DNA of 64,000 bases from an uncultured bacterium. GTDB taxonomy: Bacteria > Patescibacteriota > Minisyncoccia > CAIUEV01. Of the stretch, positions 6,934-47,740 are shown piece after piece. The position numbers and the translations under genes are program-made. Below the pieces are notes generated by a model that worked only from the letters and a program-made list of their open reading frames with translations, did not search any database and had not been told where the DNA came from. Each line of letters starts with the position of its first letter. The stretch's first letter is position 1. The stretch lies in NCBI GenBank assembly GCA_937952315.1, contig CALFZX010000010.1, positions 5,047 to 69,046 on the forward strand, given 5' to 3'.

Positions 6934-8769
6934 TTATTTTTCCTTCTTTTTAAGATCTTCGAGAATTTTTCTTAAGTCATTTTTCAATTTCTCTCTTGCT
7001 TCATTCGAAACCGCCCCTTTCGGATGGTTATTTTTTTGAACGGAGTTCGTCGATCCATGGATAATAGCCGCTTTGTGACTACGAATTTCTCTTAGACATT
7101 CTTTGCAAAAAACATCTCTGCCCTCTTGAGGAACAAAGGGCACTTTAGTTTTTTGACCGCAACGATCGCAAACCGCTTCATTCCAAACCGCTTTTTTTTC
7201 AACTTCTTGAGCTGACTCCGATGATATTTTCTCTTTTTTCATTTCAACCGTGCTAATATTCTTTTCTTCTTGAGTCGGTATGAATTCGCTTATTTTTTCC
7301 TGCATTTTTTTCTCCACTTCAACTGTTCTCAAATCCGGCCCCCCGATAATTTGAGAAGGCGACATAAATTTTTCCCGATCTGAATTTTCTTTTTTCACTT
7401 CTAACGATTTTTTAGCTAAAGGCTTGGAAACGTTCTCTTTTTTTCTGTCTTCCTTTTTTCTATTCTCCCGATCAGCTACAAATCTTTTTTGAAGCCATTT
7501 TAAAATCTTGGCCTCCACCTCCTCACGCGGTCGTCCATATCTTTCTCGTGAATGTTGAATCGCTTTATCCATGCAAGAAACAGCCGGTAACGGGAAGGGC
7601 GGAAGACCTTTGGCACTGAAAGCGTCACCGGAGACTCCGTCGATCATTAACTTTAAATAAATATTGTATTTCGGTAAGTTAATTATGTCGTTCATTTTAA
7701 CTGTCGGTTCAAATTCTTTTTCTAAAAATTCCGCGTCGGAAGCCCCGACTCGAAAAGATACCAAGGTGCCGACATTCCCAAAAACAGAGTCTCTTACCGG
7801 TTCAGTCAACTGCGCTACATACTGGTGAGCCACAATTAAGCTCAAGCGGTATTTTCTGGCTTCTGACAAAATACTGGCAAAAGATTCGGTGGCGAAATTT
7901 TGAAACTCGTCCACAAAAAGAAAAAAATCTTTTCTTTCTTTTTCCGCCTGATCAACCCTTTCCATCGCGGCTAAATAGAGTCGAGTGACCACCATTCCAC
8001 CGAGCAAAGCCATTGCCTCTTCGCCGATTCGTCCCTTTGAGAGATTCACAATCAAAATCTTTTGCTGATCCATAATTTCTCGCATATTGATTGTTGATTT
8101 TGTTTGACCGACAATGTGTCGAACGATCGGCGTTGACACGAATTGTCCCACCTTATTTTGGATGGCGGCCGTTGCCTCTCGCGCAAACCGTTGATCCCAC
8201 TTGCCAAATTCCTCCAGCCAAAAAGATCGGACGATTGGATCTTTGACTCTCTCTATCACCTGATCTCTAAATTCCTTTTCGGCCATCATTCGGTTAATCC
8301 CAAGCATCGTGCTTCCCGGATAGTCCAGAAGGGCTAAAATTGTATTGTTGAGGATATATTCCATTCGCGGGGACCAGACATCCGGCCAGATTTTCTTAAA
8401 GACTCCCATCATTCCCGAGGCGATCAGGTGCTTATGATCTTCATCGACTGCTTCAAGAATATTAAAGGCTACCGGATTTTCCAAATCGGAAGGATTGAAA
8501 TAGACCAAATCGTTCACTCGACTCTTGGGAATAAATCTCAACACTTCCTCAGCGCTGTCTCCGTGAGGATCGACAAAGGCCACACCGTTCCCCTTAAGAA
8601 TATCCTGAATCACTAGATTTTTGAGCAACACAGACTTTCCCATTCCCGTTTTTCCGATAATATACATATGCCTTCTCCGATCATCCAATTTGATGCCGAA
8701 GGTTTTCTCCTCACCTCTAAAATTAGTCTTTCCAAAAACGGTAATATCTTCCTCCTTAAGAAAAGCCAT
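6934..8769 (-). CDS. TraD/TraG/VirD4-like P-loop ATPase (type IV coupling-protein-like) with C-terminal zinc ribbon
   Basis: Walker A 'IIGKTGMGKS' and Walker B 'FFLFVDEFQNF', as in T4SS coupling proteins and HerA-like ATPases. The C-terminus contains 'CDRCGQ...CKEC', a CxxC-x17-CxxC ribbon. Confidence 0.55.
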   Translation of the reverse strand: MAFLKEEDITVFGKTNFRGEEKTFGIKLDDRRRHMYIIGKTGMGKSVLLKNLVIQDILKGNGVAFVDPHGDSAEEVLRFIPKSRVNDLVYFNPSDLENPVAFNILEAVDEDHKHLIASGMMGVFKKIWPDVWSPRMEYILNNTILALLDYPGSTMLGINRMMAEKEFRDQVIERVKDPIVRSFWLEEFGKWDQRFAREATAAIQNKVGQFVSTPIVRHIVGQTKSTINMREIMDQQKILIVNLSKGRIGEEAMALLGGMVVTRLYLAAMERVDQAEKERKDFFLFVDEFQNFATESFASILSEARKYRLSLIVAHQYVAQLTEPVRDSVFGNVGTLVSFRVGASDAEFLEKEFEPTVKMNDIINLPKYNIYLKLMIDGVSGDAFSAKGLPPFPLPAVSCMDKAIQHSRERYGRPREEVEAKILKWLQKRFVADRENRKKEDRKKENVSKPLAKKSLEVKKENSDREKFMSPSQIIGGPDLRTVEVEKKMQEKISEFIPTQEEKNISTVEMKKEKISSESAQEVEKKAVWNEAVCDRCGQKTKVPFVPQEGRDVFCKECLREIRSHKAAIIHGSTNSVQKNNHPKGAVSNEAREKLKNDLRKILEDLKKKEK

Positions 8770-8812
8770 TTTTTTATTTTAAAAATCTCGACTGAATTCC
8801 TCAGTCAACTTG

Positions 8813-8897
8813 TACCGAAGGTGGGACTCGAACCCACACAAGGGGATACCTTAAGGGATTTTAAGTCCCTCGCGTCTACCAATTCCGCCACTCCGGC
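8813..8897 (-). tRNA. tRNA-Leu (anticodon TAA), type II with long variable arm
   Basis: Reverse complement folds as a cloverleaf: acceptor GCCGGAG/CTTCGGT, D-arm GCGG..CGC, anticodon loop CTTAAAA, long variable arm, T-arm GTGGGTTCGAGTCCCAC, discriminator A. Confidence 0.8.
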
Positions 8898-27921: not shown

Positions 27922-30900
27922 ATGGCTTTTTCAAAAAAAATCAGCTCGACAGGAAGAGAAGAATTCCAGGAGATCACTCTTAGAGACACAACCAGACGGT
28001 TAAGTCGCATTTCCGAGGAGGAGCAAGCGGCCATCAAAGCGGCCGGTTTGGGTTTACCCTATCTTGATTTGAATATTTTTCCCGTAGGCACTGAAACTAT
28101 TAGCACTTTGCCGGAGGAAGTTTCGCGCTTCGGACAGTTGGTTGTTATTCAAAAAGCGGGACGAGACTTAAAAGTCGGCGTCGTTGAACCGAAAGATCCA
28201 AAAACACAGGAAGTGCTCGAAAAAATGGAAAAAGATGAAGGCTACAATTCTAGAATTTACATTATTTCTAAAACTAGCCTAGAAAGAGCTTTGGATCGCT
28301 ACAAACAGGCGAATCTCTCGACTTCGCTTGAAGAAATGATGCTAACGCTGTCCGGTAAAGACTTGGAAAAATTTGAAAACGACATTAAAGAACTGGTTGA
28401 CCTCAAAAAAAGAATTCGAGAGTTACCCACCACGGAAGTTTTGAATGTAATTATCGCCGGCGCTATCAAATTGGAAGCGAGCGATGTTCACACAGAACCG
28501 CAAAAGGAAGATGTTCGAATCCGCTATCGTTTAGACGGTGTGCTTCACGATATTGTCCACATTCCCTATAATTTCTATCCCTATGTCCTTTCTCGCGTTA
28601 AGATGCTTTCCGGCTTGAAATTAAATATTCGAGACCGAGCTCAGGATGGTCGTTTTACTATTAAAACTAATTCTTCCGAAATTGATGTAAGAGTTTCCAT
28701 CCTGCCGGGTAATTATGGTGAAAATGTGGTGATGAGGTTGCTTAATCAAGATTCAGTTGGCTTAAAATTGGAGGATTTGGGTTTGCGAGGTCGCGCCTTT
28801 GATCAGTTGATTAGCCAGCTAAACAAGCCCAATGGTATGATCCTAAATACCGGACCGACCGGATCGGGAAAAACAACAACGCTTTATGCCTGCCTTATGC
28901 GCATTAACAGTCCGGATACGAAAATTATTACGATTGAAGACCCGATCGAGTACCGTCTGCCCGGTATCTCGCAAACACAGGTGCACAAAGAAAAAGGCTA
29001 TGATTTTTCTAACGGTTTGCGCTCAATTGTCCGTCAAGACCCGGACGCTATTCTGGTGGGAGAAATCCGAGATGAGGAAACGGGGGATATTGCGGTTCAC
29101 GCCGCTCTGACCGGTCATTTGGTTTTTTCCACTTTGCACACGAATTCAGCTTCCGGCGCTGTTCCTCGTTTGATTGACTTGGGTATTCGACCGACCTTGA
29201 TTGCTCCTTCCGTTAATTGTGTCATTGCTCAAAGATTGGTGCGAAAACTATGCCCTTATTGCAAAGAAGAGTATGTACCCGCCAAAGAAACACTGGAAAG
29301 TATGGGTCGTTTTCTCTCGATTATTTCGCCTAAGGCGGGAGTGGAAATTCCTAAAAATATTACTACTCTTTTTCGAGCCAAAGGTTGTCCTCGCTGTAAG
29401 GGTATCGGTTATAAAGGACAAATGGGCATTTTTGAAGTTTTTGAGATCAACAAGGAAACGGAAAAATTAGTTTTGGAGATGGCGCCGGCCACCGATCTCC
29501 TGGCGGCGGCGATGGAATCCGGTATGATTACCATGCTTCAAGACGGAATTTTAAAAGCCTCGGAAGGCATCACTTCAATGGACGAAGTGGAAAGAACGAC
29601 GGGCGCCGGCCAGTATCTGCAGGAGGTTTATGAGAAAATCATGACCCAACTTCTCTCCTTGCAATTGAAAATAGACAAAAAACAGATCGGGGAAACGCTT
29701 GAATGCGGTTTTGACGCTCAAAAAATGGCATCACTGATCCAAAAGGCGAGCAATAAGGAAATCCTCAATTATGTGGTCGCGGGCGGATTGGCCTTCGATG
29801 CGGGCGACATTCATATGGAACCGCAGGGAGATCTGATCAAAATTCGTTATCGTATTGACGGTATTTTGGAGGACATAACGGATATTAAGGCTCAGGACTA
29901 TTTACCAATTTTATCGCAGATCAAGCTACTTTCAGGTTTTAAAACCGATTCTCACGAGGCGGTCCAGGACAGTCGTTTCGGCATCGCTTTAGAAATGCAA
30001 ATCAACGACATTGCCGACACTAAAATCGATGTCAGAGTTTCAATCATTACGGGCGGTTACGGAGAGACGGTAGTGTTGAGATTGCTTCATAAATCGGCTC
30101 GCGCTTTAGAGGTGGAGAAAATCGGTTTCAGACCGCAATTATTGGAGAAATTATTGCGAGAAATTGAAAAACCGAACGGCATTATTCTGAATACCGGACC
30201 GACCGGATCGGGAAAAACAACGACGCTATATTCCTTGCTTAATCGTCTGAACAAACCGGAAGTTAAAATTATCACCGTAGAAGATCCGATAGAATATCGT
30301 TTGGCGGGGATTCTCCAGACCCAAGTTTCCACGGAGGAAGGTTATGATTTCGCCAACGCTTTAAAGGCACTTCTGCGTCAAAATCCGGATATAATGATGA
30401 TTGGAGAAATTCGCGATGAGGAAACGGCTAAAATAGCCATTCAAGCTTCTCTAACCGGGCATTTGGTGCTTTCCACTTTGCACACTAACAGCGCGGTAGC
30501 TTCTATTCAAAGGTTGATCAATATGAATATTGATCCTACCGATATCGCCACTTCCACTAACGCTATGATGGCGCAGAGACTGCTCCGAAAGCTTTGCCCT
30601 CATTGTCGAAAAGAGGTGTTACCGAGTGATCAAGACAAACGCAAACTTGAGGAGGTGCTAGCCACCGTCAGCAAATCTTCCGGCGTCGAAGTGCCTTCAA
30701 AAATTGAAAAATTGTTTGAGCCGGTCGGTTGCGAAAAATGTAAGAATCTCGGCTATTCCGGTCGAATCGCTGTGGCGGAGATAATGGCAATGAGTCCGAC
30801 ACTTGAAGAGATGGTCTCCCGTTTTATGATCACTTCGGAGATAGAACGACAGGCGATTAGTGAAGGGATGCTGACGATGACTCAAGATGCGGCGATTCGC

Positions 30901-30954
30901 GTGGTGAACGGCGAAACAAGTATCGCCGAAGCGGCTCGATCGACGGAGCTTTAA
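27922..30954 (+). CDS. Tandem-fused double PilB/GspE-type secretion ATPase (two complete T2SS/T4P ATPase modules in one 1010-aa polypeptide)
   Basis: Each half carries Walker A 'LNTGPTGSGKTTTLY', Asp box, Walker B 'GEIRDEET', His box 'TGHLV(F/L)STLHTNSA' and a tetracysteine zinc motif (CPYC...CPRC in the first half, CPHC...CEKC in the second). Confidence 0.85.
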   Translation: MAFSKKISSTGREEFQEITLRDTTRRLSRISEEEQAAIKAAGLGLPYLDLNIFPVGTETISTLPEEVSRFGQLVVIQKAGRDLKVGVVEPKDPKTQEVLEKMEKDEGYNSRIYIISKTSLERALDRYKQANLSTSLEEMMLTLSGKDLEKFENDIKELVDLKKRIRELPTTEVLNVIIAGAIKLEASDVHTEPQKEDVRIRYRLDGVLHDIVHIPYNFYPYVLSRVKMLSGLKLNIRDRAQDGRFTIKTNSSEIDVRVSILPGNYGENVVMRLLNQDSVGLKLEDLGLRGRAFDQLISQLNKPNGMILNTGPTGSGKTTTLYACLMRINSPDTKIITIEDPIEYRLPGISQTQVHKEKGYDFSNGLRSIVRQDPDAILVGEIRDEETGDIAVHAALTGHLVFSTLHTNSASGAVPRLIDLGIRPTLIAPSVNCVIAQRLVRKLCPYCKEEYVPAKETLESMGRFLSIISPKAGVEIPKNITTLFRAKGCPRCKGIGYKGQMGIFEVFEINKETEKLVLEMAPATDLLAAAMESGMITMLQDGILKASEGITSMDEVERTTGAGQYLQEVYEKIMTQLLSLQLKIDKKQIGETLECGFDAQKMASLIQKASNKEILNYVVAGGLAFDAGDIHMEPQGDLIKIRYRIDGILEDITDIKAQDYLPILSQIKLLSGFKTDSHEAVQDSRFGIALEMQINDIADTKIDVRVSIITGGYGETVVLRLLHKSARALEVEKIGFRPQLLEKLLREIEKPNGIILNTGPTGSGKTTTLYSLLNRLNKPEVKIITVEDPIEYRLAGILQTQVSTEEGYDFANALKALLRQNPDIMMIGEIRDEETAKIAIQASLTGHLVLSTLHTNSAVASIQRLINMNIDPTDIATSTNAMMAQRLLRKLCPHCRKEVLPSDQDKRKLEEVLATVSKSSGVEVPSKIEKLFEPVGCEKCKNLGYSGRIAVAEIMAMSPTLEEMVSRFMITSEIERQAISEGMLTMTQDAAIRVVNGETSIAEAARSTEL

Positions 30955-30996: not shown

Positions 30997-32781
30997 ATGT
31001 TTATCAGCGACAAACAATTAAAAGGATTTTTACTGGAATCGGAAATCGTTCCCGCTTCTTTGTTGGAGGAAGCTTCTCTGGAGGCGGAAGATACCAAAAT
31101 AAAACTCGGCACCGTTCTGATGGAAAAAGGTCTGATTCAGGAAGAGCAGCTAAGAAAAACTTATGCTTACTTGCTGGGGATACCCTTTGTCAATCTTGAA
31201 AATCAGTATGTTCCCAAGGAAGTTTTGACAATTATTCCCGAGCCTATTGCTCGCAAACACAACATTGTAGCTTTCGAAAAAGAAGGAACAAAAATTAAAG
31301 TGGCAATGCTTGATCCGGAAGATCTTCAAACGATTGATTTTATTCGCAAGAAGACCCAAAGCAAAATTCTTCCCTGTCTGACTTCGGAAAAATCAATTAA
31401 ACATATTCTGACCCAATATCAAAAGTCTCTCAAAGCCGAATTTGGCGAAATAATCAACGAAAATGTCAAGTTTGCTTCAATCGCCGACAGGGCGAAAAAT
31501 CCGGTTAGGGACGATAAAAATTCGATCGGCAAAGAGATTGATCTTCTCAAAAAAAGAGCGGAGGAACTACCGGTAATCAAAATTGTCGATGTTCTGTTGA
31601 AGCACGCAATTTTACAGCAGGCCAGCGATATTCACATTGAACCGGAGGAAAAAGAAGTAGTGGTGCGTTATCGCATTGACGGTCTTCTGCACGATGTTAT
31701 GTTTTTGCCCAAAGAGGTTTTACCGGCCATCATCGCTCGAATAAAGGTTTTGGCCAATTTAAAACTAGATGAACATCGATTACCTCAAGATGGTCGTTTT
31801 AAGATCGAGAATAGCGATTATAAGTTCTCTTTTCGTGTTTCAATTTTGCCCATAATGGACGGAGAAAAAATCGTGATGAGATTGCTTAATGAATCGTCCA
31901 AGGGGCTAACTTTGGAACAGTTAGGCTTTAGAAATCGAGCTTTGGAGGCACTCCAAAAAAGTGTGCATAAATCGCACGGAATGATTTTAGTGACCGGACC
32001 AACCGGATCGGGAAAAACGACTACTCTTTACACGGTAATGGACATTCTCAATACCAACCAAGTCAATATTAGCACTGTCGAAGATCCGATTGAATATCGA
32101 ATGCCCCGAATCAATCAAACTCAAATTAATGCCAAGATAGGGCTAACTTTTGCAGCCGGTTTAAGGGCCCTTCTGCGTCAAGATCCGGATATTATCATGG
32201 TAGGAGAAATTCGAGATGAAGAGACAATGCATATTGCCATTAATGCCGCTATGACCGGGCATTTGGTGCTTTCAACCTTGCACACCAACAGTGCCTCCGC
32301 TACAATGCCTCGCTTGTTGGATATGGGGGCGGAACCTTTCTTGTTGGCATCGACTCTCAATATCGTTATTGCTCAAAGATTGGTACGCAAGATTTGTTCG
32401 GAGTGCAAAGTGGAATATCGTCTCAAGAAGGAAGAAATTGAGGAGTTGGGACGAAAAGTCGACTTAGCGGACCTCTTGGAAGCAATGAAACGGGAGAAAA
32501 TAATTCGACCCGAAGTGGCAAGCTGGGAGGAAATTATTTTCTATCGCGGTCAAGGGTGCAAGCGATGTGCCGAATCAGGCTATAAGGGCCGAATGGGTAT
32601 TTACGAAGTAATAGAAATGGACGATGATATCAGGGCGCTGGTTTCGAAGCGAGCTGATGCGGCCGAAATTGAGGCTGTAGCCATTGAGAAAGGCGTTCTA
32701 ACTATGCTTCAGGACGGATTCATCAAGTCGGCGGAGGGTCTGACTACCATTGAGGAAGTGCTGAGGGTAACTCAGGAATAA
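30997..32781 (+). CDS. pilB: Type IV pilus assembly / type II secretion ATPase PilB/GspE
   Basis: GSPII_E N-terminal domain, Walker A 'GPTGSGKTTTLY', 'GEIRDEET', 'TGHLVLSTLHTNSA', and tetracysteine 'CSEC...CKRC'. 594 aa. Confidence 0.88.
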   Translation: MFISDKQLKGFLLESEIVPASLLEEASLEAEDTKIKLGTVLMEKGLIQEEQLRKTYAYLLGIPFVNLENQYVPKEVLTIIPEPIARKHNIVAFEKEGTKIKVAMLDPEDLQTIDFIRKKTQSKILPCLTSEKSIKHILTQYQKSLKAEFGEIINENVKFASIADRAKNPVRDDKNSIGKEIDLLKKRAEELPVIKIVDVLLKHAILQQASDIHIEPEEKEVVVRYRIDGLLHDVMFLPKEVLPAIIARIKVLANLKLDEHRLPQDGRFKIENSDYKFSFRVSILPIMDGEKIVMRLLNESSKGLTLEQLGFRNRALEALQKSVHKSHGMILVTGPTGSGKTTTLYTVMDILNTNQVNISTVEDPIEYRMPRINQTQINAKIGLTFAAGLRALLRQDPDIIMVGEIRDEETMHIAINAAMTGHLVLSTLHTNSASATMPRLLDMGAEPFLLASTLNIVIAQRLVRKICSECKVEYRLKKEEIEELGRKVDLADLLEAMKREKIIRPEVASWEEIIFYRGQGCKRCAESGYKGRMGIYEVIEMDDDIRALVSKRADAAEIEAVAIEKGVLTMLQDGFIKSAEGLTTIEEVLRVTQE

Positions 32782-36946: not shown

Positions 36947-37690
36947 ATGAAGAAGCAAGTAATCGAGGAAACTCTCAAGAAAATTAAACGGGAAAAAATA
37001 GAGCCGACTCCCAAATGGCAATTTGAATTGAAGAATTTTTCAGTTTGGGCGATCGTAGCGATTTTAATTGTCTCGGGCGGAGTGGCTTCGGGGCTTTTGA
37101 TTTATTTTTCTTTAGGTATGAGCCAAGAATTTTTCAGTTTGGGTGAAGGCCGACGCTGGATTTTTCTTTGGCATTTTTTTCCTCGTTTTTGGTTACTGAT
37201 TCTTTCAATTTTCTTTTTTTTGGCTTTCTTGGTCTTTCGCCAAACCAAACATGGCTATCGTTACGGTACTTGGTTGATTTCAGCCGGATTAATTTCTCTG
37301 GTGATTTTCATAGGCAGTGCACTTTATTTTTCTAACAAAAGCGAATGGACCCACGAATGTTTTTGTAATAGCGTTCCCTACTATAAGGAGCTCTCTTTCG
37401 ACAGAGAGAAAGTTTGGAGCCGTCCGGACATCGGTTTTTTGGGAGGCAAGGTGTTAACAGTGGAAGAAAATAATTTAAATTTAGAAGATTTGGTCGGGAC
37501 TGTTTGGTATGTAAAACTTGACGACGGGGTGTATATCAGTCGAAGAATCAATTTAATGCCGGAAATGATGATTAAAATAATGGGAGTCAAGGAAGCGGAA
37601 AACATTTTTCGGGCGGAGGAAATTAAACCTTGGAGCGGGCGAGGAAAGAGAAAGAGTCCGTCAACAATTTGTCCGCAAATTTCCTTTTGA
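36947..37690 (+). CDS. Membrane protein, putative anti-sigma factor (by context)
   Basis: It lies immediately downstream of the ECF sigma gene. A cytoplasmic N-terminus is followed by several transmembrane helices. No motif-level support. Confidence 0.35.
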   Translation: MKKQVIEETLKKIKREKIEPTPKWQFELKNFSVWAIVAILIVSGGVASGLLIYFSLGMSQEFFSLGEGRRWIFLWHFFPRFWLLILSIFFFLAFLVFRQTKHGYRYGTWLISAGLISLVIFIGSALYFSNKSEWTHECFCNSVPYYKELSFDREKVWSRPDIGFLGGKVLTVEENNLNLEDLVGTVWYVKLDDGVYISRRINLMPEMMIKIMGVKEAENIFRAEEIKPWSGRGKRKSPSTICPQISF

Positions 37691-37762: not shown

Positions 37763-38197
37763 ATGAAAAAGTATAATCGTAATCTAAATAGTTATCTTCT
37801 GGCCGGCGCTCTTTGCACTGCCGGAGTCGCCTCGGCGGCCATGATCGCCATCCCTACTTTCGCTTATCGTGGAGACGCTTCCCAAACAGGACCGAATTAC
37901 ACTCCGGAGCGACACGAAGCGATGGAGAAAGCTTTCGAAAATAAGGACTATGCAGCTTGGAAAAACCTTATGGCGGGCAAGGGCAGAGTAACGGAAGTCA
38001 TTAATCAAGATAATTTTGCCAAATTTGCCGAAATGCACAAGTTAAGAAAAGAGGGAAAGATTGACGAAGCTAACAAAATTCGCGCCGAACTCGGTTTAGG
38101 CCAAGGCCGAATGGGCAAAGCTGACGGGCAAAAGGGCAAGGGCATGGGCAAAGGTATGCGCAACTGCGACTGCCAAACCCAAACCGCTACTCAATAG
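37763..38197 (+). CDS. Secreted or membrane-anchored small protein with Lys/Gly-rich tail
   Basis: N-terminal signal or transmembrane segment. The C-terminus is low complexity: 'GQGRMGKADGQKGKGMGKGMRNCDCQ'. Confidence 0.45.
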   Translation: MKKYNRNLNSYLLAGALCTAGVASAAMIAIPTFAYRGDASQTGPNYTPERHEAMEKAFENKDYAAWKNLMAGKGRVTEVINQDNFAKFAEMHKLRKEGKIDEANKIRAELGLGQGRMGKADGQKGKGMGKGMRNCDCQTQTATQ

Positions 38198-38807: not shown

Positions 38808-38862
38808 TCCAAATCTACCTGCCTGCCGCCTGCCTGCCGGTAGGCAGGGTAAGCAGGTATTT
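38808..38862. repeat. GC-rich imperfect palindrome
   Basis: 'tacctgcctgccgcctgcctgcc|ggtaggcagggtaagcaggta' contains direct 'cctgcc' repeats and inverted arms. Its GC content is far above the local background. Confidence 0.5.
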
Positions 38863-38972
38863 AGGTTAAGCCCTCTCTTCCCCCATTTTTTGTTTGGGAG
38901 TAGAGTGAGAGTGAAATGCAAAACAAGAGTGATTGTTAGCTTTATCTTCTAAAAACTTTTTAGGAATAAAAG

Positions 38973-41900
38973 ATGAAAAATTTCATTACCAACAGTGGGG
39001 CGGATAATCTTAAAGATCGCTTGCTGGAACTAATAAAAAGCAGCGAGGAGTTAAAATTTTTGGTTGGATTCTTCTATTTCTCTGGGATTAGAGAGCTTTA
39101 CGAAGGATTAAAAAAGAAGCCAGATACCGTCATTAAAGTTCTTGTTGGCCTAAATGTTGATCAATCCAATTTTGGCTTAATTGAATTTTCAGAGAAAGAA
39201 CAGTTATCTGATGAGGAAAAAACTTATAAATTCTTTGAATCGATAAAAAAATCTTTAAACAACGAAAGTCTTGATAACCAAGAATTTTATGAACAGGTAA
39301 GATTTTTTATTAAGCTTATTCAAAAAGACAAATTAATTATCCGTAAAACTTTTAAGCCTAATCACTCCAAACTTTATCTTTTTAAGTTGGATGAAAGTCA
39401 AGTAGGTCAAAGAAATTTATTTATTACAGGATCGAGTAATTTAACTAGTGCCGGTCTTTCTACCCAAAATGAATTCAATGTAGAAATAGGCGATTATGGT
39501 TTTGGGGATGCCGAGCAGTATTTTGAAGATCTTTGGCAAGAAGCAGTGAAGATTACCGAATTTGATGATCTTAAAAAGAAACTCGTTCAAGTTATTGAAG
39601 CAGAAACATTAGTAAAAGATATTTCACCATTTGAAGCTTTTTGTTTAGTTTTAAAAACATATCTTGATTCGTTCGAGCAAAAAGAAATTAGCGATTCTTT
39701 GATTAAAATTCTAGAAAAAAATAATTATAAGCCGTATCAATATCAGCTAGATGCGGTTAGGCAAGCATTGGCCATAATAGAAAAAAATAACGGAGTTATT
39801 GTAGCTGATGTAGTCGGTTTGGGAAAAACAATTATTGCCTGTGCCATAGCGAAACAGCTGAAAAAACGCGGGCTGATTGTTTGTCCCCCGGGTCTTATAG
39901 GTGATAGTAACAAAAATTCTGGCTGGAAAAAATATACGGAAGAATTTAGCCTTTATGATTGGGAAGTTCGTTCATCGGGTGATCTGGGGAAAATATTGGA
40001 GTTCGTTAAAAAGGCTACGGACATTGAAGTTATAATAGTTGATGAAGCTCACAGTTTTAGGAATCAAGACACGAAAAACTATGAGCTTCTGAAAAATATT
40101 TGTCGTGGAAAACAAGTGATTTTATTGACTGCCACCCCTTTTAACAACCGTCCAGCGGATATTTTAGCTCTTTTAAAACTTTTTATAACTCCTAAAAAAT
40201 CCTCGATTACATTAGAAAACAATTTGGTTGATCAATTCAAGGGTTTCAAAGGTATGTTTGAGAAGCTTGGGCATATTAGTAAATATTGGAGTTCCACTGA
40301 CGAATCTAAAAGAAATCAAGCTATAAATTATTATAAAGCATTATTCGAAGAAGAAACCGTTGATTTGAAAAAAGTCGCCGTAAGAGCCCGCTATCTTTCT
40401 AAGCAAATTAGAAATGTTATTGAGCCGGTAACAATAAGGCGTAATCGACTTGATTTGCAGAATAATCCTTATTACAAAAATGAAGTCAAAAATCTTGCAA
40501 AAGTGGAAGATCCCATAGAGTGGCCTTTCTATTTAACAGTTGAACAGTCCAGATTTTATGATGAAGTCATAAAAAATTATTTTGGCGAGCCAGAGGAGGG
40601 GGGAAGGTTTAAAGGCTCAATTTACAGACCCTTTGAATACGAAAAAGTTGTTGAGGACAAGATGGGTAAAGATGATAATCGTCAATTTATTCAGCAAAGA
40701 AATTTGTTTGACTTCATGAGACGATTGATCGTGAAACGATTTGAAAGTTCTTTTGGGTCATTTGCGCAAAGCATCAAAAACTTCAAGAAAATTACGGAAA
40801 GTAGTCGAGATTTTATTAAAAAAACCGGAGAGTATATTCTAGATAGAGCACTTTTGGAAAAAATCTATGAATTAGAGGCTGAAGATATTGAAAAATATCT
40901 CTTAGAGTATGAGGAAAAAATAAAAAAAGGTGAATACCCCAAAAACCACAAACGATATAAATTAAGTGCATTTAAGCACAAAAATGCTTTTCTTCGGGAC
41001 ATTGATTCGGATCTAAAATTGTTTGACGAAATATTATCAGAGCTAAACAGAATGAGTCTTATTAAAAATGATCCGAAAACCGCTTGCTTGTTGAAGCACC
41101 TGAAAGAAGAATTAAACAAAAAGCCACAAAAGGATGAGCCAAAAAGAAAAATTATTATTTTTTCTGAATATATTGATACTGTTAAGTATCTTGAAAAAGC
41201 ATTAGAGAAAACATTTGAAGACAGAATTTTAGTAGTAGACGGTGGCTTGTCAGTAGCAAAAATCAATCAAATCAACAAAAATTTTGACGCCTCATACAAT
41301 AGTAAAGAAAATAATTTTGATATTTTATTGACATCCGACAAAATTTCAGAGGGTTTTAACTTGAACAGAGCGGGAATGGTCATTAATTATGACATTCCAT
41401 GGAATCCGGTTCGGGTTATTCAGCGGCTTGGTCGTATCAATCGTATTAGTAAAAAAGTTTTTAATGAGCTTTATATTGTAAACTTCTTTCCGACTGAACA
41501 AGGTGCGACACTGGTTCAATCGCGTGAAATTGCTGCCAACAAAATGTTTTTAATCCACAATACTTTGGGCGAGGATTCAAAAATTTTTAATATCGACGAA
41601 GAACCAACCCCCGCAGGACTTTTTAACCGAATTCAACGAAATCCAGATCAGCAAGAAAAAGAAGGATTTTACACTAAAGCGTTAAACCACTATTTAAAAA
41701 TAAAGAAAGATAATCCGGAGTTGATTGCTGGCTTGAAGAAATATCCTCCAAGAATCAAGGTAGCAAAAATTTACACAGAAAATGAGCTTTTGGTTTTTTT
41801 CAAAAAGGGGAGACTCTATGTCAGTGGAGCAAAAACCGACACGGAAAAGATTGAAATATTTCAAGCAAGCCTTGAAGATGTCTTTGAAAAAATTGTTTGC

Positions 41901-42293
41901 CAATCGAACGAAAAAGCACAAAACTGGAACACAGATCAATTTTGGAAAGCATACGATTCTATCCAAACATACAAAAACTTTCGTTTAGGTTCCGTTAGCG
42001 AACAAAGTCTTGAGTCAAAAGCTCTTAATAGCCTCGATTCTCTTATTTTAAGCAACACAGAAAGTCTTATCCCCCACAAGGATTTTCTGAGAATGTTGAA
42101 AGAAGATATTTTATCATACGGTACATTGGCCGATTATACTTTGCGTCGAATTATCGGATTGAAAGAAAACTCTGTCAAAGAAATTAGGGCATTAAAAAAA
42201 GAATTAGGAGAGGACTATCTAGCCAAAGAAAAGGATCGCCAGAAAGAGCAGAAAAAAGAAGTTATTATCGCTATTAATAATCTTAAAAAATGA
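38973..42293 (+). CDS. SNF2-family helicase with N-terminal PLD-like nuclease domain
   Basis: N-terminal '...NHSKLYLFKLD...ITGSSNLT' matches the HxK...D...GSxN phospholipase-D motif. Helicase motifs: I 'VADVVGLGKTIIA', II 'IVDEAHSFRN', III 'LLTATPFNN', V/VI 'DIPWNPVRVIQRLGRINRIS'. Confidence 0.85.
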   Translation: MKNFITNSGADNLKDRLLELIKSSEELKFLVGFFYFSGIRELYEGLKKKPDTVIKVLVGLNVDQSNFGLIEFSEKEQLSDEEKTYKFFESIKKSLNNESLDNQEFYEQVRFFIKLIQKDKLIIRKTFKPNHSKLYLFKLDESQVGQRNLFITGSSNLTSAGLSTQNEFNVEIGDYGFGDAEQYFEDLWQEAVKITEFDDLKKKLVQVIEAETLVKDISPFEAFCLVLKTYLDSFEQKEISDSLIKILEKNNYKPYQYQLDAVRQALAIIEKNNGVIVADVVGLGKTIIACAIAKQLKKRGLIVCPPGLIGDSNKNSGWKKYTEEFSLYDWEVRSSGDLGKILEFVKKATDIEVIIVDEAHSFRNQDTKNYELLKNICRGKQVILLTATPFNNRPADILALLKLFITPKKSSITLENNLVDQFKGFKGMFEKLGHISKYWSSTDESKRNQAINYYKALFEEETVDLKKVAVRARYLSKQIRNVIEPVTIRRNRLDLQNNPYYKNEVKNLAKVEDPIEWPFYLTVEQSRFYDEVIKNYFGEPEEGGRFKGSIYRPFEYEKVVEDKMGKDDNRQFIQQRNLFDFMRRLIVKRFESSFGSFAQSIKNFKKITESSRDFIKKTGEYILDRALLEKIYELEAEDIEKYLLEYEEKIKKGEYPKNHKRYKLSAFKHKNAFLRDIDSDLKLFDEILSELNRMSLIKNDPKTACLLKHLKEELNKKPQKDEPKRKIIIFSEYIDTVKYLEKALEKTFEDRILVVDGGLSVAKINQINKNFDASYNSKENNFDILLTSDKISEGFNLNRAGMVINYDIPWNPVRVIQRLGRINRISKKVFNELYIVNFFPTEQGATLVQSREIAANKMFLIHNTLGEDSKIFNIDEEPTPAGLFNRIQRNPDQQEKEGFYTKALNHYLKIKKDNPELIAGLKKYPPRIKVAKIYTENELLVFFKKGRLYVSGAKTDTEKIEIFQASLEDVFEKIVCQSNEKAQNWNTDQFWKAYDSIQTYKNFRLGSVSEQSLESKALNSLDSLILSNTESLIPHKDFLRMLKEDILSYGTLADYTLRRIIGLKENSVKEIRALKKELGEDYLAKEKDRQKEQKKEVIIAINNLKK

Positions 42294-43972
42294 TTATTGA
42301 GGATTTAATGAAGATTTTAGCTCAACCTTCTGAAAATGAGAATGTTGAGTTTAAAGAAGCAAAGAATAGTTTTTCAGTACTAGGAAGGGACAATAAACGA
42401 GGTAAAAAAAATCGTAAGTCGATTTATGGCTATTCTGTTGCCATCGGCAACGAAGGTGGCGGACACTTAATCTTAGGAGTTAAGGACAAAATAAATAAAA
42501 AAACCGGTAGACGAGATATCGTTGGCACAAAGGCCATTCAAAACATAACCCAAACCAAAGAAAAATTGTACGAGGCTTTAGGAAGAAGAGTCGAAATTCA
42601 AACCCTAAAGACCCCGGAGGGGACTGTTCAGGTGATAGAAATACCAGCACATCCGGTAGGGGGAACTTTTAAATTTTACAATGTTCCATTGATGAGAAAT
42701 GGTGAAAATCTAGTTCCTATGGATGACGAGACTCTCAAAAAAATATTAACTGAAAATAGAGAAGACTTTTCTGCAAAATTAAATCTCTCAGCAAATTTTG
42801 ATGATTTAGACCCAAAATTACTTAGAATTTTAAAGGACAAGTATATCCTAAAATCGGGGAACAAGGAGCTAAAAGAAGTTTCTCATAAAGATATTTTGCA
42901 AAAATTACTTTTAGTAAGAAAAGATAAAATAACAAATGCTTGTTTGTTGTTAGTAGGAAAAGAAGATTCTTTGGCTAGATTAATTCCCAACCATGAAATA
43001 TTTTTAGAATGGCGTTCAGATGAGCACAAACTTGAATTTGAAAATCGCTACACAACAAGAAAAGCCTATCTATCAGTCGAAGCTGAAATATGGAAATATG
43101 TTAACGCTCGTAATGTTCGCGTTCCTTTTAAACAGGGCTTTTTTGAGATGGATATTTGGGCATACGATAAAAATAGCGTAAGAGAATCGGTTTTGAATGC
43201 TTTTGCTCACAGAGAATATGATAATCGGACAGAGCCTGTCTATGTGCGCTTGTCTCCGAGCAATTTGTCCATAAAAAGTCCCGGAGGTTTTGTCTCCGGT
43301 GTGTCAGTAGAAAATATTTTAGATGTTGAAGGAAAGTGGAGAAATCCATTTTTGATGGATGTACTGAGCCGCATAGGTTTAGTGGAAAGGGCTGGAATCG
43401 GACTGGATCGAATTTACAAAAAAACTATTTCTGATGGAAAGGGTTTGCCGAATTTTGACGGGACTGACAATGATCAAGTTATTTTAAATATTCCCGCCAT
43501 TGTTAAAGATCCCGGCTTTATTTATTATTTAGAAAAAATTAATCAAAAAAACCAGCTTTTTTCATCAACAAAGGATTTTATCGAGTTGGAAAAAATAAGA
43601 GGAACCGGAATCCCTGAGGATAAGAATAGACTAAAATATTTTCTGAAAAACAATATTATAGAGAAAATTAATCATGGCAGGGGTACCAGGTATATCCTAG
43701 CAAAGAATTTTTATGAATTTATTGAGGGTAAAGGCGAATACACAAGAAAAAAATGGCTTAGCAAAGAACAGCAGAAAGAAGTGCTTTTAAATTATTTTAT
43801 TCAGCATAAAGAAGGCAGAATGTCGGACTTCAAGGAGCTTTTTGAGGATAAGTTGAATAAAATTCAAATTAATATTTTACTAAACAAACTCAGAGACGAA
43901 GAAATGATTTATTTCGACGGTAAGGAGAGATCAAGCAAAGCATACTGGCGCTTAAGGAAAAATACAGAGTAA
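42290..43972 (+). CDS. AlbA_2/Schlafen-like putative DNA-binding ATP-binding protein (divergent-AAA / HATPase_c_4-type regulator)
   Basis: N-terminal 'ENVEFKEAK...YSVAIGNEGGGHLILGVKD' matches the AlbA_2 signature. Its start overlaps the upstream stop as ATGA. Confidence 0.6.
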   Translation: MIIEDLMKILAQPSENENVEFKEAKNSFSVLGRDNKRGKKNRKSIYGYSVAIGNEGGGHLILGVKDKINKKTGRRDIVGTKAIQNITQTKEKLYEALGRRVEIQTLKTPEGTVQVIEIPAHPVGGTFKFYNVPLMRNGENLVPMDDETLKKILTENREDFSAKLNLSANFDDLDPKLLRILKDKYILKSGNKELKEVSHKDILQKLLLVRKDKITNACLLLVGKEDSLARLIPNHEIFLEWRSDEHKLEFENRYTTRKAYLSVEAEIWKYVNARNVRVPFKQGFFEMDIWAYDKNSVRESVLNAFAHREYDNRTEPVYVRLSPSNLSIKSPGGFVSGVSVENILDVEGKWRNPFLMDVLSRIGLVERAGIGLDRIYKKTISDGKGLPNFDGTDNDQVILNIPAIVKDPGFIYYLEKINQKNQLFSSTKDFIELEKIRGTGIPEDKNRLKYFLKNNIIEKINHGRGTRYILAKNFYEFIEGKGEYTRKKWLSKEQQKEVLLNYFIQHKEGRMSDFKELFEDKLNKIQINILLNKLRDEEMIYFDGKERSSKAYWRLRKNTE

Positions 43973-44075
43973 CTGTGTTTTTTCGAATAATTTTAATTAT
44001 TTTGGCTTAATAAAGCCAAATGATCAATAACCTAAAATACAGACCAAATACAGTTTTAAAATTAATTAAGAATCA

Positions 44076-47000
44076 ATGAGCGAATCCAGGCAAATTCTAG
44101 AAACTATAATTAATGATTTTTCCGTTGATAAATTTAGCCGGTTTTTTCGGGAAAAAAATCGCAATTTTGTTGTGCGAGAAGAAAATTACACTCGTTACGA
44201 TGATGATAATTTTAAGGATGGATTGAAAATCGGAGAAATAAATTTTTCTGAAATTGAGAAAATTATTGTTTGCTCTTTTAAAGTCAAAAATAGTTTATCT
44301 GAACGATCGGGCAAAAGAGCCCAATATGAAAAAGCTAAAAACATATTAAAATCAAACGAAAATCGCATCTTTTCTGCCGGTATTTTTATTTTTTATGATA
44401 AAGATGGCCACTTCCGCTTTTCTCTTGTCTATCCTGAGAGCATAGGCACAAAAAGACAGTGGAGTCACTTTAAGCGATTTACATATTTTGTTAATAAGGA
44501 ACTAACCAACAAAACTTTTTTGAAGCAGATTGGGGAGAAAAAGATTGAATCCGTTGATGAAATCAAAGAAGCTTTCTCAATCTCCGCGGTTACAAACTTG
44601 TTCTATGATGATTTTTTCAAGATATACGATACGATTATTCAGGAAACAAAAAAAATCAATGATATAGATGACGACAACTTATCGAGAGAATTCGTTCTTC
44701 TTTTTGCCATAAGAACTATTTTTCTCGGCTTTATCCAAAAGAGAAAATGGCTAGGTGGTGACGAAAAATTTATTGAAAATTTTTATAGAGAGTATTCAAG
44801 CTCAAACAAAAAGAACGAATTTTATTCAAACTGGCTCTGTCCTTTATTTTTTGAAGCGCTGAATTCAAGTCCCGGTCATAAAGTTGAGTACGGAAAAAAC
44901 AATTTTTCAAAAGAAACCGAACTGAAATTGCAAATGGCTCCTTTTTTGAATGGCGGGCTTTTTAAGGAAAAAAGAGGCTATGACAATAACGGTTGGATTA
45001 TTCCGGACGAACAGATAAAATCTTTTTTTGAATTTCTTTTTTCGCACAGCTTTACGATAGAAGAAAATGCTCTTGACGATGAGGATCTACAGCTTAATCC
45101 GGAGTTCTTGGGAATTATTTTTGAAAGACTTGTCAACAAAGCTGATGGAGCAGTCTATACACAAAGAATGGAAGTTGATATAATGTGTCGATGGAGCCTA
45201 ATCAAATGGTTAGAAAAAAATCTCGATTCATCCATTAGCAAAAAAAATCTTTATGAACTTTTTTTTAGGGAAAGCGGGGAGGATGAAGATGAGAAAAAAG
45301 GAAGTTTCTCAAAAAAGGAGGCGATGATGATTCTTGAAAAACTGGAGCAACTTTCTATTTGTGATCCGGCGGCGGGATCGGGAGCTTTTCTGGTTGGAAT
45401 GATGCAAGTTTTAGATGAAGTCGAACAATCTTTAAAGGAGCGTTACGGATTAAATGGGAGAAATGTTTTTGAAAGAAAAAAACAAATTATTAAAAACTCT
45501 CTTTACGGTGTCGAAGCCAAAGAATGGGCGGTTTGGATCTGCCAACTAAGGCTTTGGCTTTCTTTGTTTATCGATACGCCCGAAGAAATGAAAAATTCAA
45601 TGGAAGCAATTTTGCCGAGTTTAGATTTCAAGGTTCGAAGAGGCGATTCTTTGGTTCAAAGAGTCGGTTCAAAGAGCTTTCCGGTCGCGGGTAGAAATTT
45701 AAGTTTGAGCACGAATAACAAAATAAAAATAACAAAACTCAGAAAATATAAAATCGATTATTTCGACAATAAAATCAAGCTGCTAAAAAATGATTTCGAT
45801 GTCTGCGCTCACCGCGAATTATCAATCTATGAAAGTATTATTGATGAAGAAATCAAGACAAAAAAAGATGAAATTAAAAAAGAGAAAAATATAAAAATAT
45901 CTGAGACAATGACGCTGCTGCCCTCTTTAGGCTATCTGCAAGAACAACAACAAGCCACTCTTCAATTGGATAATAAAGAAAAAATAGAAAGATTAGAAAA
46001 GGAAATTAAAGACTTACTAGAACAAAAAGAATTATTAAAAAAAGGCAAACCATTGGTTTGGAACATAGAATTCGCTGATATTTTTTGGGGCGATAAGAAA
46101 GGCTTTGATATTGTTATCGGGAACCCTCCCTATGTTCGTCAGGAATCAATTGAAGATCCGATGGGAAAAGTTAAAGATAAAAAAGAGTATAAAAAATATC
46201 TTCAAGAGATGGTACGGCTTGATTTCCCCAATGATTTTCCACCAAAAAAGAAAATCAACGCCCAATCGGATCTTTATACTTATTTTTATATTCGCGGATT
46301 AAAAATTCTTAATTCTCAGGGAGTTCACGCCTTCATCTGCTCCAATTCTTGGTTGGATGTCGGCTACGGAACTTGGCTTCAAGAGTTCTTGCTTAAACGC
46401 TGCCCAGTTGATTTAATTATAGACAATCACGCCAAGCGTAGTTTTGGTGCCGCCGATGTGAACACAATTATTTCGATTATCCATGCTCCTCAAAAAAAAG
46501 TGGATGAAAATCATTTGGTAAAGTTCACGGCCTTCAAAAAACCTTTTGAAAAGGTTATTTTTACGAATAATCTTTTAGAAATAGAAGAGGCTAAGCAAGT
46601 CTTGAACAACGAAAATTTTCGAGTCTATCCGATTTCAATCAAAGATTTGAAGGAGGCGGGAACGGAATATGAAGATAAAACATTGGTTAAGACGGGAAAA
46701 TACGTCGGCGACAAATGGGGCGGTAAATATCTCCGCGCCCCTGATATTTTCTTTACGATTTTGGAAAAAGGAAAGGATAAATTAGTAAAATTAAGGGATG
46801 TGGCGGACGTTCGTTTTGGCATTAAGACTGGTGCCAATGATTTTTTTTATTTGACGAAATCCAAAGCTAAAGAATGGGGAATTGAGGAGGAATTTTTAAA
46901 GCCGGTCATCAAGAGTCCGAGAGAGTGCAAAAGTATTTTAGTCAATCCGAAGGATTTGAAATATAAAATTTTTATGTGTAACAAAAGCAAAGAAGAGCTC

Positions 47001-47594
47001 AAAGGAACAAACGCTTTGAAGTATATTGAGTGGGGAGAGGTGAAGGGCTTTGATGAGCGTCCAAGCTGTGGAAGTAGACGAATGTGGTGGAATTTAGGAC
47101 TGGTTGATTCTAAAATTGTGTACCCATCGACATATAATCCTGTATTTAAAATTTTTTTTAATACAGAAAAATATCCAGTTGATAAAGTATTCTACGGCAT
47201 TGAGTCAAATAAACCAGAGAACTTAATTGTTTCAGTTGTCAGCTATTTATTTACTTTACAAACAGAAGTTTATGGATATGCACTAGTCGGTGGCGGAGGA
47301 TTATTTATGACAGTAGAAAATCTTGGTCGCATCCTTGTTTTTTATGACAAAAAAATAAAAAACGATCCTTCAGTGTATAGTAAGATTCGGAAATCAATCT
47401 TTGAAGAATGTGGAATCGACCCGAAGTCTGAGATTCCGATTGAGGAGCAGGAGCCGAATCCGTTACCTGATCGGGCGGAGTTGGATAAAATTGTTTTTGA
47501 TGCGCTGGGATTAACCACAGAAGAACGCAAAGAAGTTTATCGGGCTGTTTGCCGGTTGGTTTGGAACCGCATCAGTAAGGCGAAGAGTGTATAA
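44076..47594 (+). CDS. Type IIG/Eco57I-family N6-adenine DNA methyltransferase, possibly with N-terminal PD-(D/E)xK endonuclease
   Basis: Motif I 'DPAAGSGAFLVG', 'LYGVEAKEWAVWICQLRLWLSL' (Eco57I/PglX-type), and motif IV 'GNPPYVRQ'. About 500 aa of C-terminal target-recognition-like region. The N-terminal 'DDD...EIEKIIVCSFKVK' may be a nuclease core. Confidence 0.85.
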   Translation: MSESRQILETIINDFSVDKFSRFFREKNRNFVVREENYTRYDDDNFKDGLKIGEINFSEIEKIIVCSFKVKNSLSERSGKRAQYEKAKNILKSNENRIFSAGIFIFYDKDGHFRFSLVYPESIGTKRQWSHFKRFTYFVNKELTNKTFLKQIGEKKIESVDEIKEAFSISAVTNLFYDDFFKIYDTIIQETKKINDIDDDNLSREFVLLFAIRTIFLGFIQKRKWLGGDEKFIENFYREYSSSNKKNEFYSNWLCPLFFEALNSSPGHKVEYGKNNFSKETELKLQMAPFLNGGLFKEKRGYDNNGWIIPDEQIKSFFEFLFSHSFTIEENALDDEDLQLNPEFLGIIFERLVNKADGAVYTQRMEVDIMCRWSLIKWLEKNLDSSISKKNLYELFFRESGEDEDEKKGSFSKKEAMMILEKLEQLSICDPAAGSGAFLVGMMQVLDEVEQSLKERYGLNGRNVFERKKQIIKNSLYGVEAKEWAVWICQLRLWLSLFIDTPEEMKNSMEAILPSLDFKVRRGDSLVQRVGSKSFPVAGRNLSLSTNNKIKITKLRKYKIDYFDNKIKLLKNDFDVCAHRELSIYESIIDEEIKTKKDEIKKEKNIKISETMTLLPSLGYLQEQQQATLQLDNKEKIERLEKEIKDLLEQKELLKKGKPLVWNIEFADIFWGDKKGFDIVIGNPPYVRQESIEDPMGKVKDKKEYKKYLQEMVRLDFPNDFPPKKKINAQSDLYTYFYIRGLKILNSQGVHAFICSNSWLDVGYGTWLQEFLLKRCPVDLIIDNHAKRSFGAADVNTIISIIHAPQKKVDENHLVKFTAFKKPFEKVIFTNNLLEIEEAKQVLNNENFRVYPISIKDLKEAGTEYEDKTLVKTGKYVGDKWGGKYLRAPDIFFTILEKGKDKLVKLRDVADVRFGIKTGANDFFYLTKSKAKEWGIEEEFLKPVIKSPRECKSILVNPKDLKYKIFMCNKSKEELKGTNALKYIEWGEVKGFDERPSCGSRRMWWNLGLVDSKIVYPSTYNPVFKIFFNTEKYPVDKVFYGIESNKPENLIVSVVSYLFTLQTEVYGYALVGGGGLFMTVENLGRILVFYDKKIKNDPSVYSKIRKSIFEECGIDPKSEIPIEEQEPNPLPDRAELDKIVFDALGLTTEERKEVYRAVCRLVWNRISKAKSV

Positions 47595-47740
47595 GATTTG
47601 ATTATCTAATATAATTATCGATTTCAGAGGAATTTAAATTGAATTTGTGAGCTTTAAATTAAAAATAAGATATTGTGTAAAGATCACAAGATTTTTTGTA
47701 AAAACACTTTAGAAAACATTAAACATCTTCTCATGATTCG

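Follow-up and report, generated by a model that had tools for sequence, protein, structure and literature searches.

We describe here a putative two-gene system in a stretch of 64,000 nucleotides (the window) from an uncultured bacterium of the Patescibacteriota (contig CALFZX010000010.1, positions 5,047 to 69,046 of the forward strand); coordinates are given as window positions. The first gene, R (38973..42293, plus strand), encodes a protein of 1106 amino acids (aa) which, judged by the list of open reading frames (ORFs), its translation, Pfam matches, and a full-length AlphaFold2 model, joins a phospholipase D (PLD) domain of the single-HKD nuclease class to an SNF2 motor. The second gene, M (44076..47594, plus strand), was identified by Pfam and by its motifs as coding for an Eco57I/MmeI-type N6-adenine methyltransferase of 1172 aa with a variable C-terminal half. 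We propose that R and M form the conserved core of a horizontally acquired, ATP-dependent restriction-modification module in which R would be the cutting subunit, a reading to which we give a probability of about 0.62. R is read as a restriction-modification subunit because a methyltransferase of this type is its conserved neighbor in related loci.

A single-HKD nuclease domain fused to an SNF2 motor

The original prediction held that the protein encoded at 38973..42293 carries a PLD nuclease domain fused N-terminally to an SNF2 helicase. Pfam matches to PLDc_2, SNF2-rel_dom, and Helicase_C, together with the AlphaFold2 fold, bear this out. The PLD domain (aa 1-235; 39677 being the last position of 38973..39677, plus strand) was delimited with PLDc_2, the fold matches of the model, and a family profile compared to Protein Data Bank (PDB) sequences. 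The PLDc_2 match lies at aa 19-188, within the first 200 residues where the domain had been predicted, and is marginal (E 1.1e-6, 28.9 bits against a cut-off of 27); a match to the RE_NgoFVII PLD domain covers aa 120-192. Since the PLDc_2 score is marginal, the domain was also checked by conservation, fold, and profile search.

The HKD motif of R occupies aa 130-158 (N130-H131-S-K133 ... G153-S-S-N156). Across an alignment of 33 N-terminal PLD domains from relatives of R, reaching down to 23% identity (A2), H131, K133, G153, S154, N156, and E167 are invariant. The corresponding codons are at 39363..39371 for the catalytic H131-S132-K133, at 39429..39440 for G153-S154-S155-N156, and at 39471..39473 for E167 (all plus strand), the conserved Glu 11 residues past N156, a spacing that we take to be the same as that from Asn to Glu in Nuc. 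From the motif first read in the sequence, HxK..D..GSxN, the HxK and GSxN parts are thus retained, whereas the Asp that had been marked, D140, is not conserved and varies among relatives (D/E/N/Q/K). Where HxK(x)4D canonically has its Asp, R has K138. In nuclease-type members of the PLD superfamily this Asp is not known to be required for catalysis.

The AlphaFold2 model of residues 1-245 had a mean predicted local distance difference test score (pLDDT) of 86.9 and a predicted template modeling score (pTM) of 0.82. Its best matches in the PDB were SauUSI (7clg; E 1.6e-10), R.NgoAVII (4rct), Zucchini, Nuc (1byr), NucT, and BfiI, and nearly all of the top 50 belong to the PLD superfamily or contain a PLD-like domain. 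When the A2 profile was compared to PDB sequences, weak matches to Zucchini/mitoPLD (E 0.001), NucT, and R.NgoVII were obtained; a narrower PLD profile (A1) gave no match to PDB sequences, nor did single-sequence searches of R and of M against the sequences of solved structures. Together, the modeled fold and the conserved catalytic set confirm the assignment of the N-terminal region of R as a putative nuclease-class PLD domain with a single HKD motif.

A role for this domain other than DNA cleavage, as a TDP1-like phosphodiesterase for protein-DNA adducts or as a structural dimerization module, would fit the absence of the canonical Asp and the breadth of the superfamily, whose non-nucleases phosphatidylserine synthase, PPK1, and FAM83 were also seen among the fold matches of the PLD model; moreover, an origin of TDP1 from HKD domains joined to SNF2 ATPases has been suggested (PMC3417536). 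In contrast, the top fold matches are all single-HKD DNA or RNA nucleases (SauUSI, NgoAVII, Zucchini, Nuc, NucT, and BfiI), the invariance of the His/Lys/Ser/Asn/Glu set argues for catalysis over a scaffold, and a methyltransferase partner makes sense beside a nuclease. We regard a non-nuclease function of the PLD domain as highly improbable.

The SNF2 ATPase core follows at aa 252-860 (39726..41552, plus strand) and was recognized by Pfam, motif residues, Foldseek, and a profile search against the PDB. Pfam places ResIII/SNF2-rel_dom at aa 252-522 and Helicase_C at aa 708-825, with SNF2-rel_dom scoring 50.2 bits against a cut-off of 24.9. By their positions we assigned the Walker A motif GLGKT to aa 282-286 (39816..39830), DEAH to aa 357-360 (40041..40052), and motif VI, QRLGRINR, to aa 817-824 (41421..41444), all on the plus strand; the TATP motif is at aa 386-389. 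All four motifs are invariant across 65 sequences of the R family (alignment A3). The full-length AlphaFold2 model (pLDDT 84, pTM 0.77) matched SMARCAD1, RapA, Chd1, CSB, and Mot1 in Foldseek, and also SauUSI and ZorD, the alignment with SauUSI extending over about 1100 columns. The SNF2 sequence profile retrieved CHD4, RapA, and SsoRad54 from the PDB. By sequence and model, the prediction of an SNF2 motor with helicase motifs I, II, III, and VI intact is unambiguous. That both catalytic sets are strictly conserved throughout the R family also supports the earlier suggestion that the fusion constitutes one nuclease-translocase effector.

Beyond the motor, the model shows a C-terminal domain of four beta-strands in a sheet plus helices (about aa 890-1106; 41640..42290, plus strand) with pLDDT of about 88-95 in this block. 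It had no Pfam or PADLOC match. Family scans of R found no modified-base reader (SRA, EVE, or similar), the C-terminal fold not having been searched separately. We infer that this domain could provide a contact surface for the methyltransferase.

Among 8000 candidates scored, 6775 were related to R at E<=1e-10. The best 120 relatives are 1103-1138 aa long and 68-82% identical to R; nearly all have PLDc_2, SNF2, and Helicase_C matches, and HxK...GSxN is present in every one (120/120). When the representatives of 50%-identity clusters were searched exhaustively with R, 987 clusters were returned at E<=1e-30. The best 150 of these included 113 full-length representatives (28-71% identity to R), and HxK...G(S/T)xN is retained in 112 of them, the PLD site being degenerate only in P0143. 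Three motif-bearing representatives (P0233, P0236, and P0242) have Trp in place of the invariant Gly (GSSN -> WSSN; GG -> WW), which is likely due to wrong-code translation of genes that read UGA as Gly, with the codon rendered as Trp.

A survey for separate PLD and SNF2 proteins had been called for with the original prediction; among the relatives of R that were searched, no genuine split orthologue was seen. One candidate, P0133 (901 aa, without a PLD domain), was rejected as a frameshifted or miscalled fused gene (locus L029, 7319..10706), because PLD-coding DNA sits directly upstream: tblastn located PLD residues 4-119 there in another reading frame. Within the reach of these sequence searches, the PLD-SNF2 fusion appears to be the norm in the R family, widespread, and already described. 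The notion that the fusion is something unusual is accordingly withdrawn, given the near-universal motif, the 987 clusters, a PADLOC model for the same architecture, and the prior literature considered below: the fusion is common, catalogued, and has been predicted before to be a restriction effector.

The 90%-identity cluster of R has as its representative a partial protein named from Candidatus Moranbacteria, which makes it probable that the host belongs to the Candidate Phyla Radiation (CPR). Homologues with 50-83% identity occur in Methylomirabilis, Smithella, Lentisphaerae, CPR phyla, Planctomycetota, Cloacimonadota, Ignavibacteria, and Anaerolinea, a spread over many phyla that points to horizontal transfer.

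Linkage to the methyltransferase and proposed mechanism

M matches the Pfam families Eco57I (E 1.7e-28), MmeI_Mtase (E 4.5e-12), and N6_Mtase. Motif I, DPAAGSG, is at aa 430-436 (45363..45383) and motif IV, NPPY, at aa 683-686 (46122..46133), both on the plus strand, and the presence of both motifs predicts a gamma-class N6-adenine methyltransferase. Within the first 160 aa no Asp, Glu, or Lys is invariant in 15 homologues; by this test, which is one of motifs and not of structure, no PD-(D/E)xK nuclease of the Type IIG kind is seen in M. The homologues share a conserved N-terminal half and differ in the C-terminal half, which fits a target-recognition domain located there.

We assembled 113 related loci (labeled L001 and onward) from reference genomes, metagenomes, assemblies, and plasmids. 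A homologue of M adjoins R in 85 of them, sharing its strand in every case and lying downstream of it in 71 loci and upstream in 14, and this linkage persists where R is only 28-31% identical to the window protein. In many loci R and M overlap by 4 nucleotides (L001, L002, L004, L005, L010, L013, L019, and L020). The remaining 28 loci have no M homologue; in 22 of these the sequence breaks off within 3 kb on the downstream side of R, and L064 is the only one with a complete R gene, 8 kb of sequence on either side, and no M homologue detected.

This linkage bears on the possibility that R acts on its own as a modification-dependent and ATP-dependent endonuclease (Type IV-like, as SauUSI is), with M an orphan or Type IIG/IIL-like enzyme that is independent of R and simply travels with it. 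SauUSI is indeed the best fold match of the PLD domain and aligns with the full-length model as well, and L064 has R without a detectable M within the flanks just given. Against this stand the same-strand association in 85/113 loci, often with the 4-nucleotide overlap and down to the lowest identities; the lack of a conserved nuclease triad in M, which means that M is not a complete Type IIG enzyme; and the failure to detect SRA, EVE, or a similar reader in R. We consider a stand-alone Type IV-like role very unlikely.

Relatives of R are also found on plasmids of cultured hosts. Those of Allomeiothermus silvanus pMESIL02 (L030) and Thermus oshimai pTHEOS02 (L033) are 38-39% identical to R, and a further plasmid-borne relative occurs in cultured Parabacteroides distasonis (L031). 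In L030 and L033, R is preceded by a hypothetical protein of 327-412 aa and this in turn by a methyltransferase shorter than M (744-787 aa), an order which suggests a variant whose target-recognition part may be a separate subunit. On Haloferax volcanii pHV4, a distant relative of R (a PLD-like helicase) adjoins the methyltransferase HVO_A0079, itself a distant relative of M.

According to the mechanism that we propose for the restriction-modification module, M would recognize a short asymmetric site, presumably through its C-terminal half as target-recognition domain, and would methylate the DNA of the host. R would supply the functions absent from M, namely motor and nuclease. In a physical complex of R and M, the SNF2 motor would hydrolyze ATP and translocate on double-stranded DNA from unmodified sites, and the PLD domain would cut the DNA. 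Since a single HKD half-site is an incomplete PLD active center, cleavage should need two PLD domains, as in Nuc, BfiI, and SauUSI; by analogy with these enzymes, homodimerization of R may complete the active site. The two PLD domains could already be paired in R as a constitutive dimer, or could pair only once translocating complexes run into each other. Breaks would then likely arise at some distance from the site, or the DNA would be shredded, and foreign DNA such as that of phages would thereby be restricted.

Several points weigh against this proposal. The PLDc_2 sequence score of R barely exceeds its threshold, and the canonical Asp is missing from the HKD motif. That R interacts with M, which site is targeted, and that DNA is cut are matters that we infer, and the searchable literature yielded no biochemical or phage-assay study of the R family. 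Other systems that pair an SNF2 protein with a PglX-like methyltransferase, such as bacteriophage exclusion (BREX) type 3, defense island system associated with restriction-modification (DISARM) class 1, ARMADA II, and Hma/BREX-related systems, need further components, and some of them do not obviously degrade DNA. Finally, HVO_A0079, which is labeled "Type IIG", gave no detectable methylation (PMC5867850).

The R-M junction and its genomic setting

In the window, R and M are separated by an accessory gene (42290..43972, plus strand; 560 aa) recognized by Pfam as having an AlbA_2 (Schlafen-like) and a HATPase_c_4 domain, and presumably of the COG2865 type. The junction sequence shows that its ATG overlaps the stop codon of R (ATGA). 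A similar gene lies between R and M in L003, L038, L047, L049, and L074 and directly upstream of R in L031 (the P. distasonis plasmid) and L086; in all, about eight of the 113 loci, besides the window, have such a gene within about 0.5 kb of R.

These observations could be taken to indicate that the system has three components, with the AlbA_2/HATPase_c_4 protein as a sensor or regulator subunit of R-M, comparable to the GHKL/MORC ATPases of some restriction-modification operons; the overlap with the R stop codon and the recurrence of a similar gene at or near the same place favor it, and GHKL ATPases linked to restriction-modification operons with superfamily 2 (SF2) helicase-nucleases have been described (PMC2292703). 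The gene is absent, however, from most of the 113 loci, and the proteins of the window and of L003 are only 28% identical over about 100 aa. Moreover, the R-M slot is filled in other loci by unrelated cargo: DUF3800, SIR2+HerA, AbiEii, IrrE-HTH, a Macro-domain protein, and YhcG/DUF1016. Accessory genes occupy the junction in L003, L006, L038, L047, L049, L055, L074, L079, L083, and L108. The finding of unrelated cargo in one slot suggests an insertion hot spot, and it led us to downgrade the AlbA_2/HATPase_c_4 protein as a candidate core subunit. A three-component system is in our judgment unlikely; most likely, the gene is an embedded accessory or independent defense gene and not part of the core. 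Type I restriction-modification operons likewise carry embedded defense genes.

Genes of defense type are often found beside the module, among them Gabija-type GajA/GajB, RloB with an AAA ATPase, and reverse transcriptase. A Gabija-like pair (AAA_15 + OLD-TOPRIM ATPase, followed by a UvrD-like helicase) lies directly downstream of R-M in three loci from different phyla (L002, 13276..15898; L004, 7319..10889; L005, 10665..13433).

R, the AlbA_2/HATPase_c_4 gene, and M together lie in an island of low guanine-plus-cytosine (GC) content with approximate bounds 38900..47700, defined from the GC profile: GC is 0.34-0.38 at 38-48 kb compared to 0.40-0.44 to either side, a difference that also fits horizontal transfer. 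The island is flanked by a sigma-70 family gene, the gene for tryptophanyl-tRNA synthetase, and two small genes without a Pfam match (36947..37690 and 37763..38197). No flanking direct repeats and no tRNA were found at its edges. The surrounding genes of the window are housekeeping or ordinary cellular genes, including those for isoleucyl-, lysyl-, and methionyl-tRNA synthetase, NusA, RpoB, and an AcrB-family transporter. About 110 nucleotides upstream of the R start, an AT-rich spacer contains a GC-rich imperfect palindrome (38821..38860; gcctgccgcctgcctgccggtaggcagggtaagcagg), which might serve as a terminator or operator or represent a repeat element.

Two further regions of the window drew our attention. 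An ORF of 1010 aa (27922..30954, plus strand) combines a GspE/PilB-like secretion ATPase (about aa 19-560) with a PilT-like ATPase module (about aa 680-890) in one protein; such a tandem of ATPases may be an unusual fusion. The gene that follows (30997..32781, plus strand) is again PilB-like, and its N-terminus scored 24 bits, against a cut-off of 38, with the MshE-related motif that binds cyclic di-GMP. On the minus strand, 6934..8769 encodes a protein like the type IV coupling proteins of the TrwB type, with a treble-clef zinc finger. This gene adjoins tRNA-Leu (8812..8897) and may be the remnant of an integrated mobile element.

Comparison with known systems

Fusions of HKD (PLD) domains to SWI2/SNF2 ATPases in bacterial restriction-modification systems were reported by Aravind and colleagues, who cite their own work of 2006 (PMC3417536). 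SWI2/SNF2 helicases fused to PD-(D/E)xK or PLD nucleases also occur in DUF499 operons (PMC7641849), and fusions of HKD domains to SF2 helicases in Dnd-associated and Pbe systems (PMC10853773). In PADLOC, the model PDLC01075 ("C3a139: HKD+Snf2") aligns with R in a single alignment (R 12-877 against model positions 11-778 of 948; E 4.6e-37), which indicates that the fused architecture is already catalogued among defense-related proteins; at 126 bits, R is a distant relative of this model and not a member.

A close published arrangement is that of the "Type-2 BREX-related" systems, which comprise an effector of HKD-endoDNase and Swi2/Snf2, DUF499, DUF3780, and an N6-adenine methyltransferase (Rakesh & Krishnan 2026, PMC12839542). 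In domain architecture and model, R resembles the effector of these Type-2 BREX-related/Hma systems in its N-terminal HKD domain, SNF2 core, C-terminal extension, paired N6-adenine methyltransferase, and predicted role in restriction. The systems are, however, defined by the DUF499 AAA+ ATPase, with DUF3780 in 98% of them. DUF499 is absent from the window and, in related loci, from the sampled genes that lie between or beside R and M, and Pfam scans of the window and the sampled loci gave no match to DUF3780; membership of the R-M locus was rejected for this reason. In addition, the PADLOC model of HmaA covers only the C-terminal part of the helicase of R (E 1.3e-30), and the methyltransferase of DUF499 operons is COG1743 (PMC7641849), whereas M is of the Eco57I/MmeI type.

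DISARM class 1 (DrmD, DrmMI, and DrmA/DrmB/DrmC) likewise has an SNF2 helicase beside a large N6-adenine methyltransferase and a PLD nuclease within the system; the PLD protein is separate there and is fused in R. This DISARM protein is often dispensable. The original prediction had taken DrmC and DrmD as the equivalents of the two parts of R, a comparison that did not hold up. With the NCBIfam DISARM_DrmD models, R scored 164.3 bits against a cut-off of 610 (NF038317) and 93 against 950 (NF038318), and the isolated PLD domain matched the DrmC models at E 0.029 and 0.068 only. Neither DrmA (helicase) nor DrmB (DUF1998) was found in the window, where the other scanned ORFs are housekeeping genes or have no family match. 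On these grounds DISARM membership of R was rejected.

A looser kinship with these systems has to be weighed as well. R and M could belong to a minimal system of the BREX/DISARM/ARMADA kind, in which an SNF2 protein and a PglX-like protein block phage replication in a non-classical way, or with host factors encoded elsewhere, the PLD domain serving as a back-up or being triggered, for example in an abortive-infection attack on the cell's own DNA. The helicase region of R matches the DrmD, HmaA, BrxHII, and DpdE models (E 1e-37 to 1e-21) and M matches those of DrmMI and PglX, every one of these scores being far under the family cut-off. Pairs of this kind recur as ArmA+ArmB of ARMADA II (PMC12458937), in BREX type 3, and in BREX-related systems (PMC12839542), and for other HKD-helicase fusions a suicidal mode of action has been put forward (PMC10853773). 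In contrast, the further components of such systems (DrmA/B, BrxC/PglZ, DUF499, DUF3780, and a YprA-like helicase) were not found in the window, nor among the genes sampled between or around R and M in related loci, and R and M are self-sufficient on paper, having recognition, modification, motor, and nuclease between them. A minimal system of this kind appears doubtful to us, and we retain restriction by R together with M as the preferred explanation.

SauUSI, the Type IV ATP-dependent restriction endonuclease of PDB entry 7CLG, is the closest analogue with a solved structure and shares with R an N-terminal single-HKD PLD domain fused to an SF2 motor, with 19% identity over the PLD domain. 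Its motor is reportedly not of the SNF2 type, and its C-terminal domain is said to recognize methylated or hydroxymethylated cytosine; it reportedly has no cognate methyltransferase and cuts modified DNA. R differs in having a linked methyltransferase, and no modified-base reader was found in it. SauUSI is reported to dimerize through its PLD domains, to translocate at the expense of ATP, and to shred the DNA that lies between sites (PMC7913695), and we adopt this as the working model for R. The Type IIG/IIL enzymes (MmeI/Eco57I-like), in turn, resemble M, which shares methyltransferase motifs I and IV with them and lacks their N-terminal PD-(D/E)xK signature.

The value of the window locus lies in its pointing to a very widespread two-gene module, its R protein falling into 987 clusters from many phyla, CPR bacteria included, that is often mislabeled in databases. 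R is annotated as "helicase" or "SNF2-related protein", and partners of the M type risk being listed as stand-alone "Type IIG" enzymes, HVO_A0079 being an example, despite the lack of an evident nuclease signature. One characterized member would tell whether an SNF2 motor with a single-HKD nuclease restricts by collision or by shredding, and would help to interpret the SNF2 and PglX-like pairs of BREX type 3, DISARM class 1, ARMADA, and Hma.

With regard to known restriction enzymes, the Type ISP enzymes LlaGI and LlaBIII unite an Mrr/PD-(D/E)xK nuclease and a motor of non-SNF2 type in one polypeptide; they recognize a site, translocate in one direction, and cleave upon collision. We take R-M to resemble a split Type ISP enzyme: the functions of nuclease, SF2 translocase, gamma-class N6-adenine methyltransferase, and target recognition are shared, and are here presumably divided over two genes, with PLD as the nuclease and SNF2 as the motor. 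On this comparison we tentatively raise the possibility that HKD-SNF2 proteins and their Eco57I-like methyltransferases constitute a distinct, self-sufficient class of ATP-dependent restriction-modification system, a split, PLD-armed analogue of Type ISP whose SNF2 motor would bring in a nuclease with half an active site, that would cut only when two motors meet, and whose R-M junction might act as a docking slot for co-expressed accessory defense genes.

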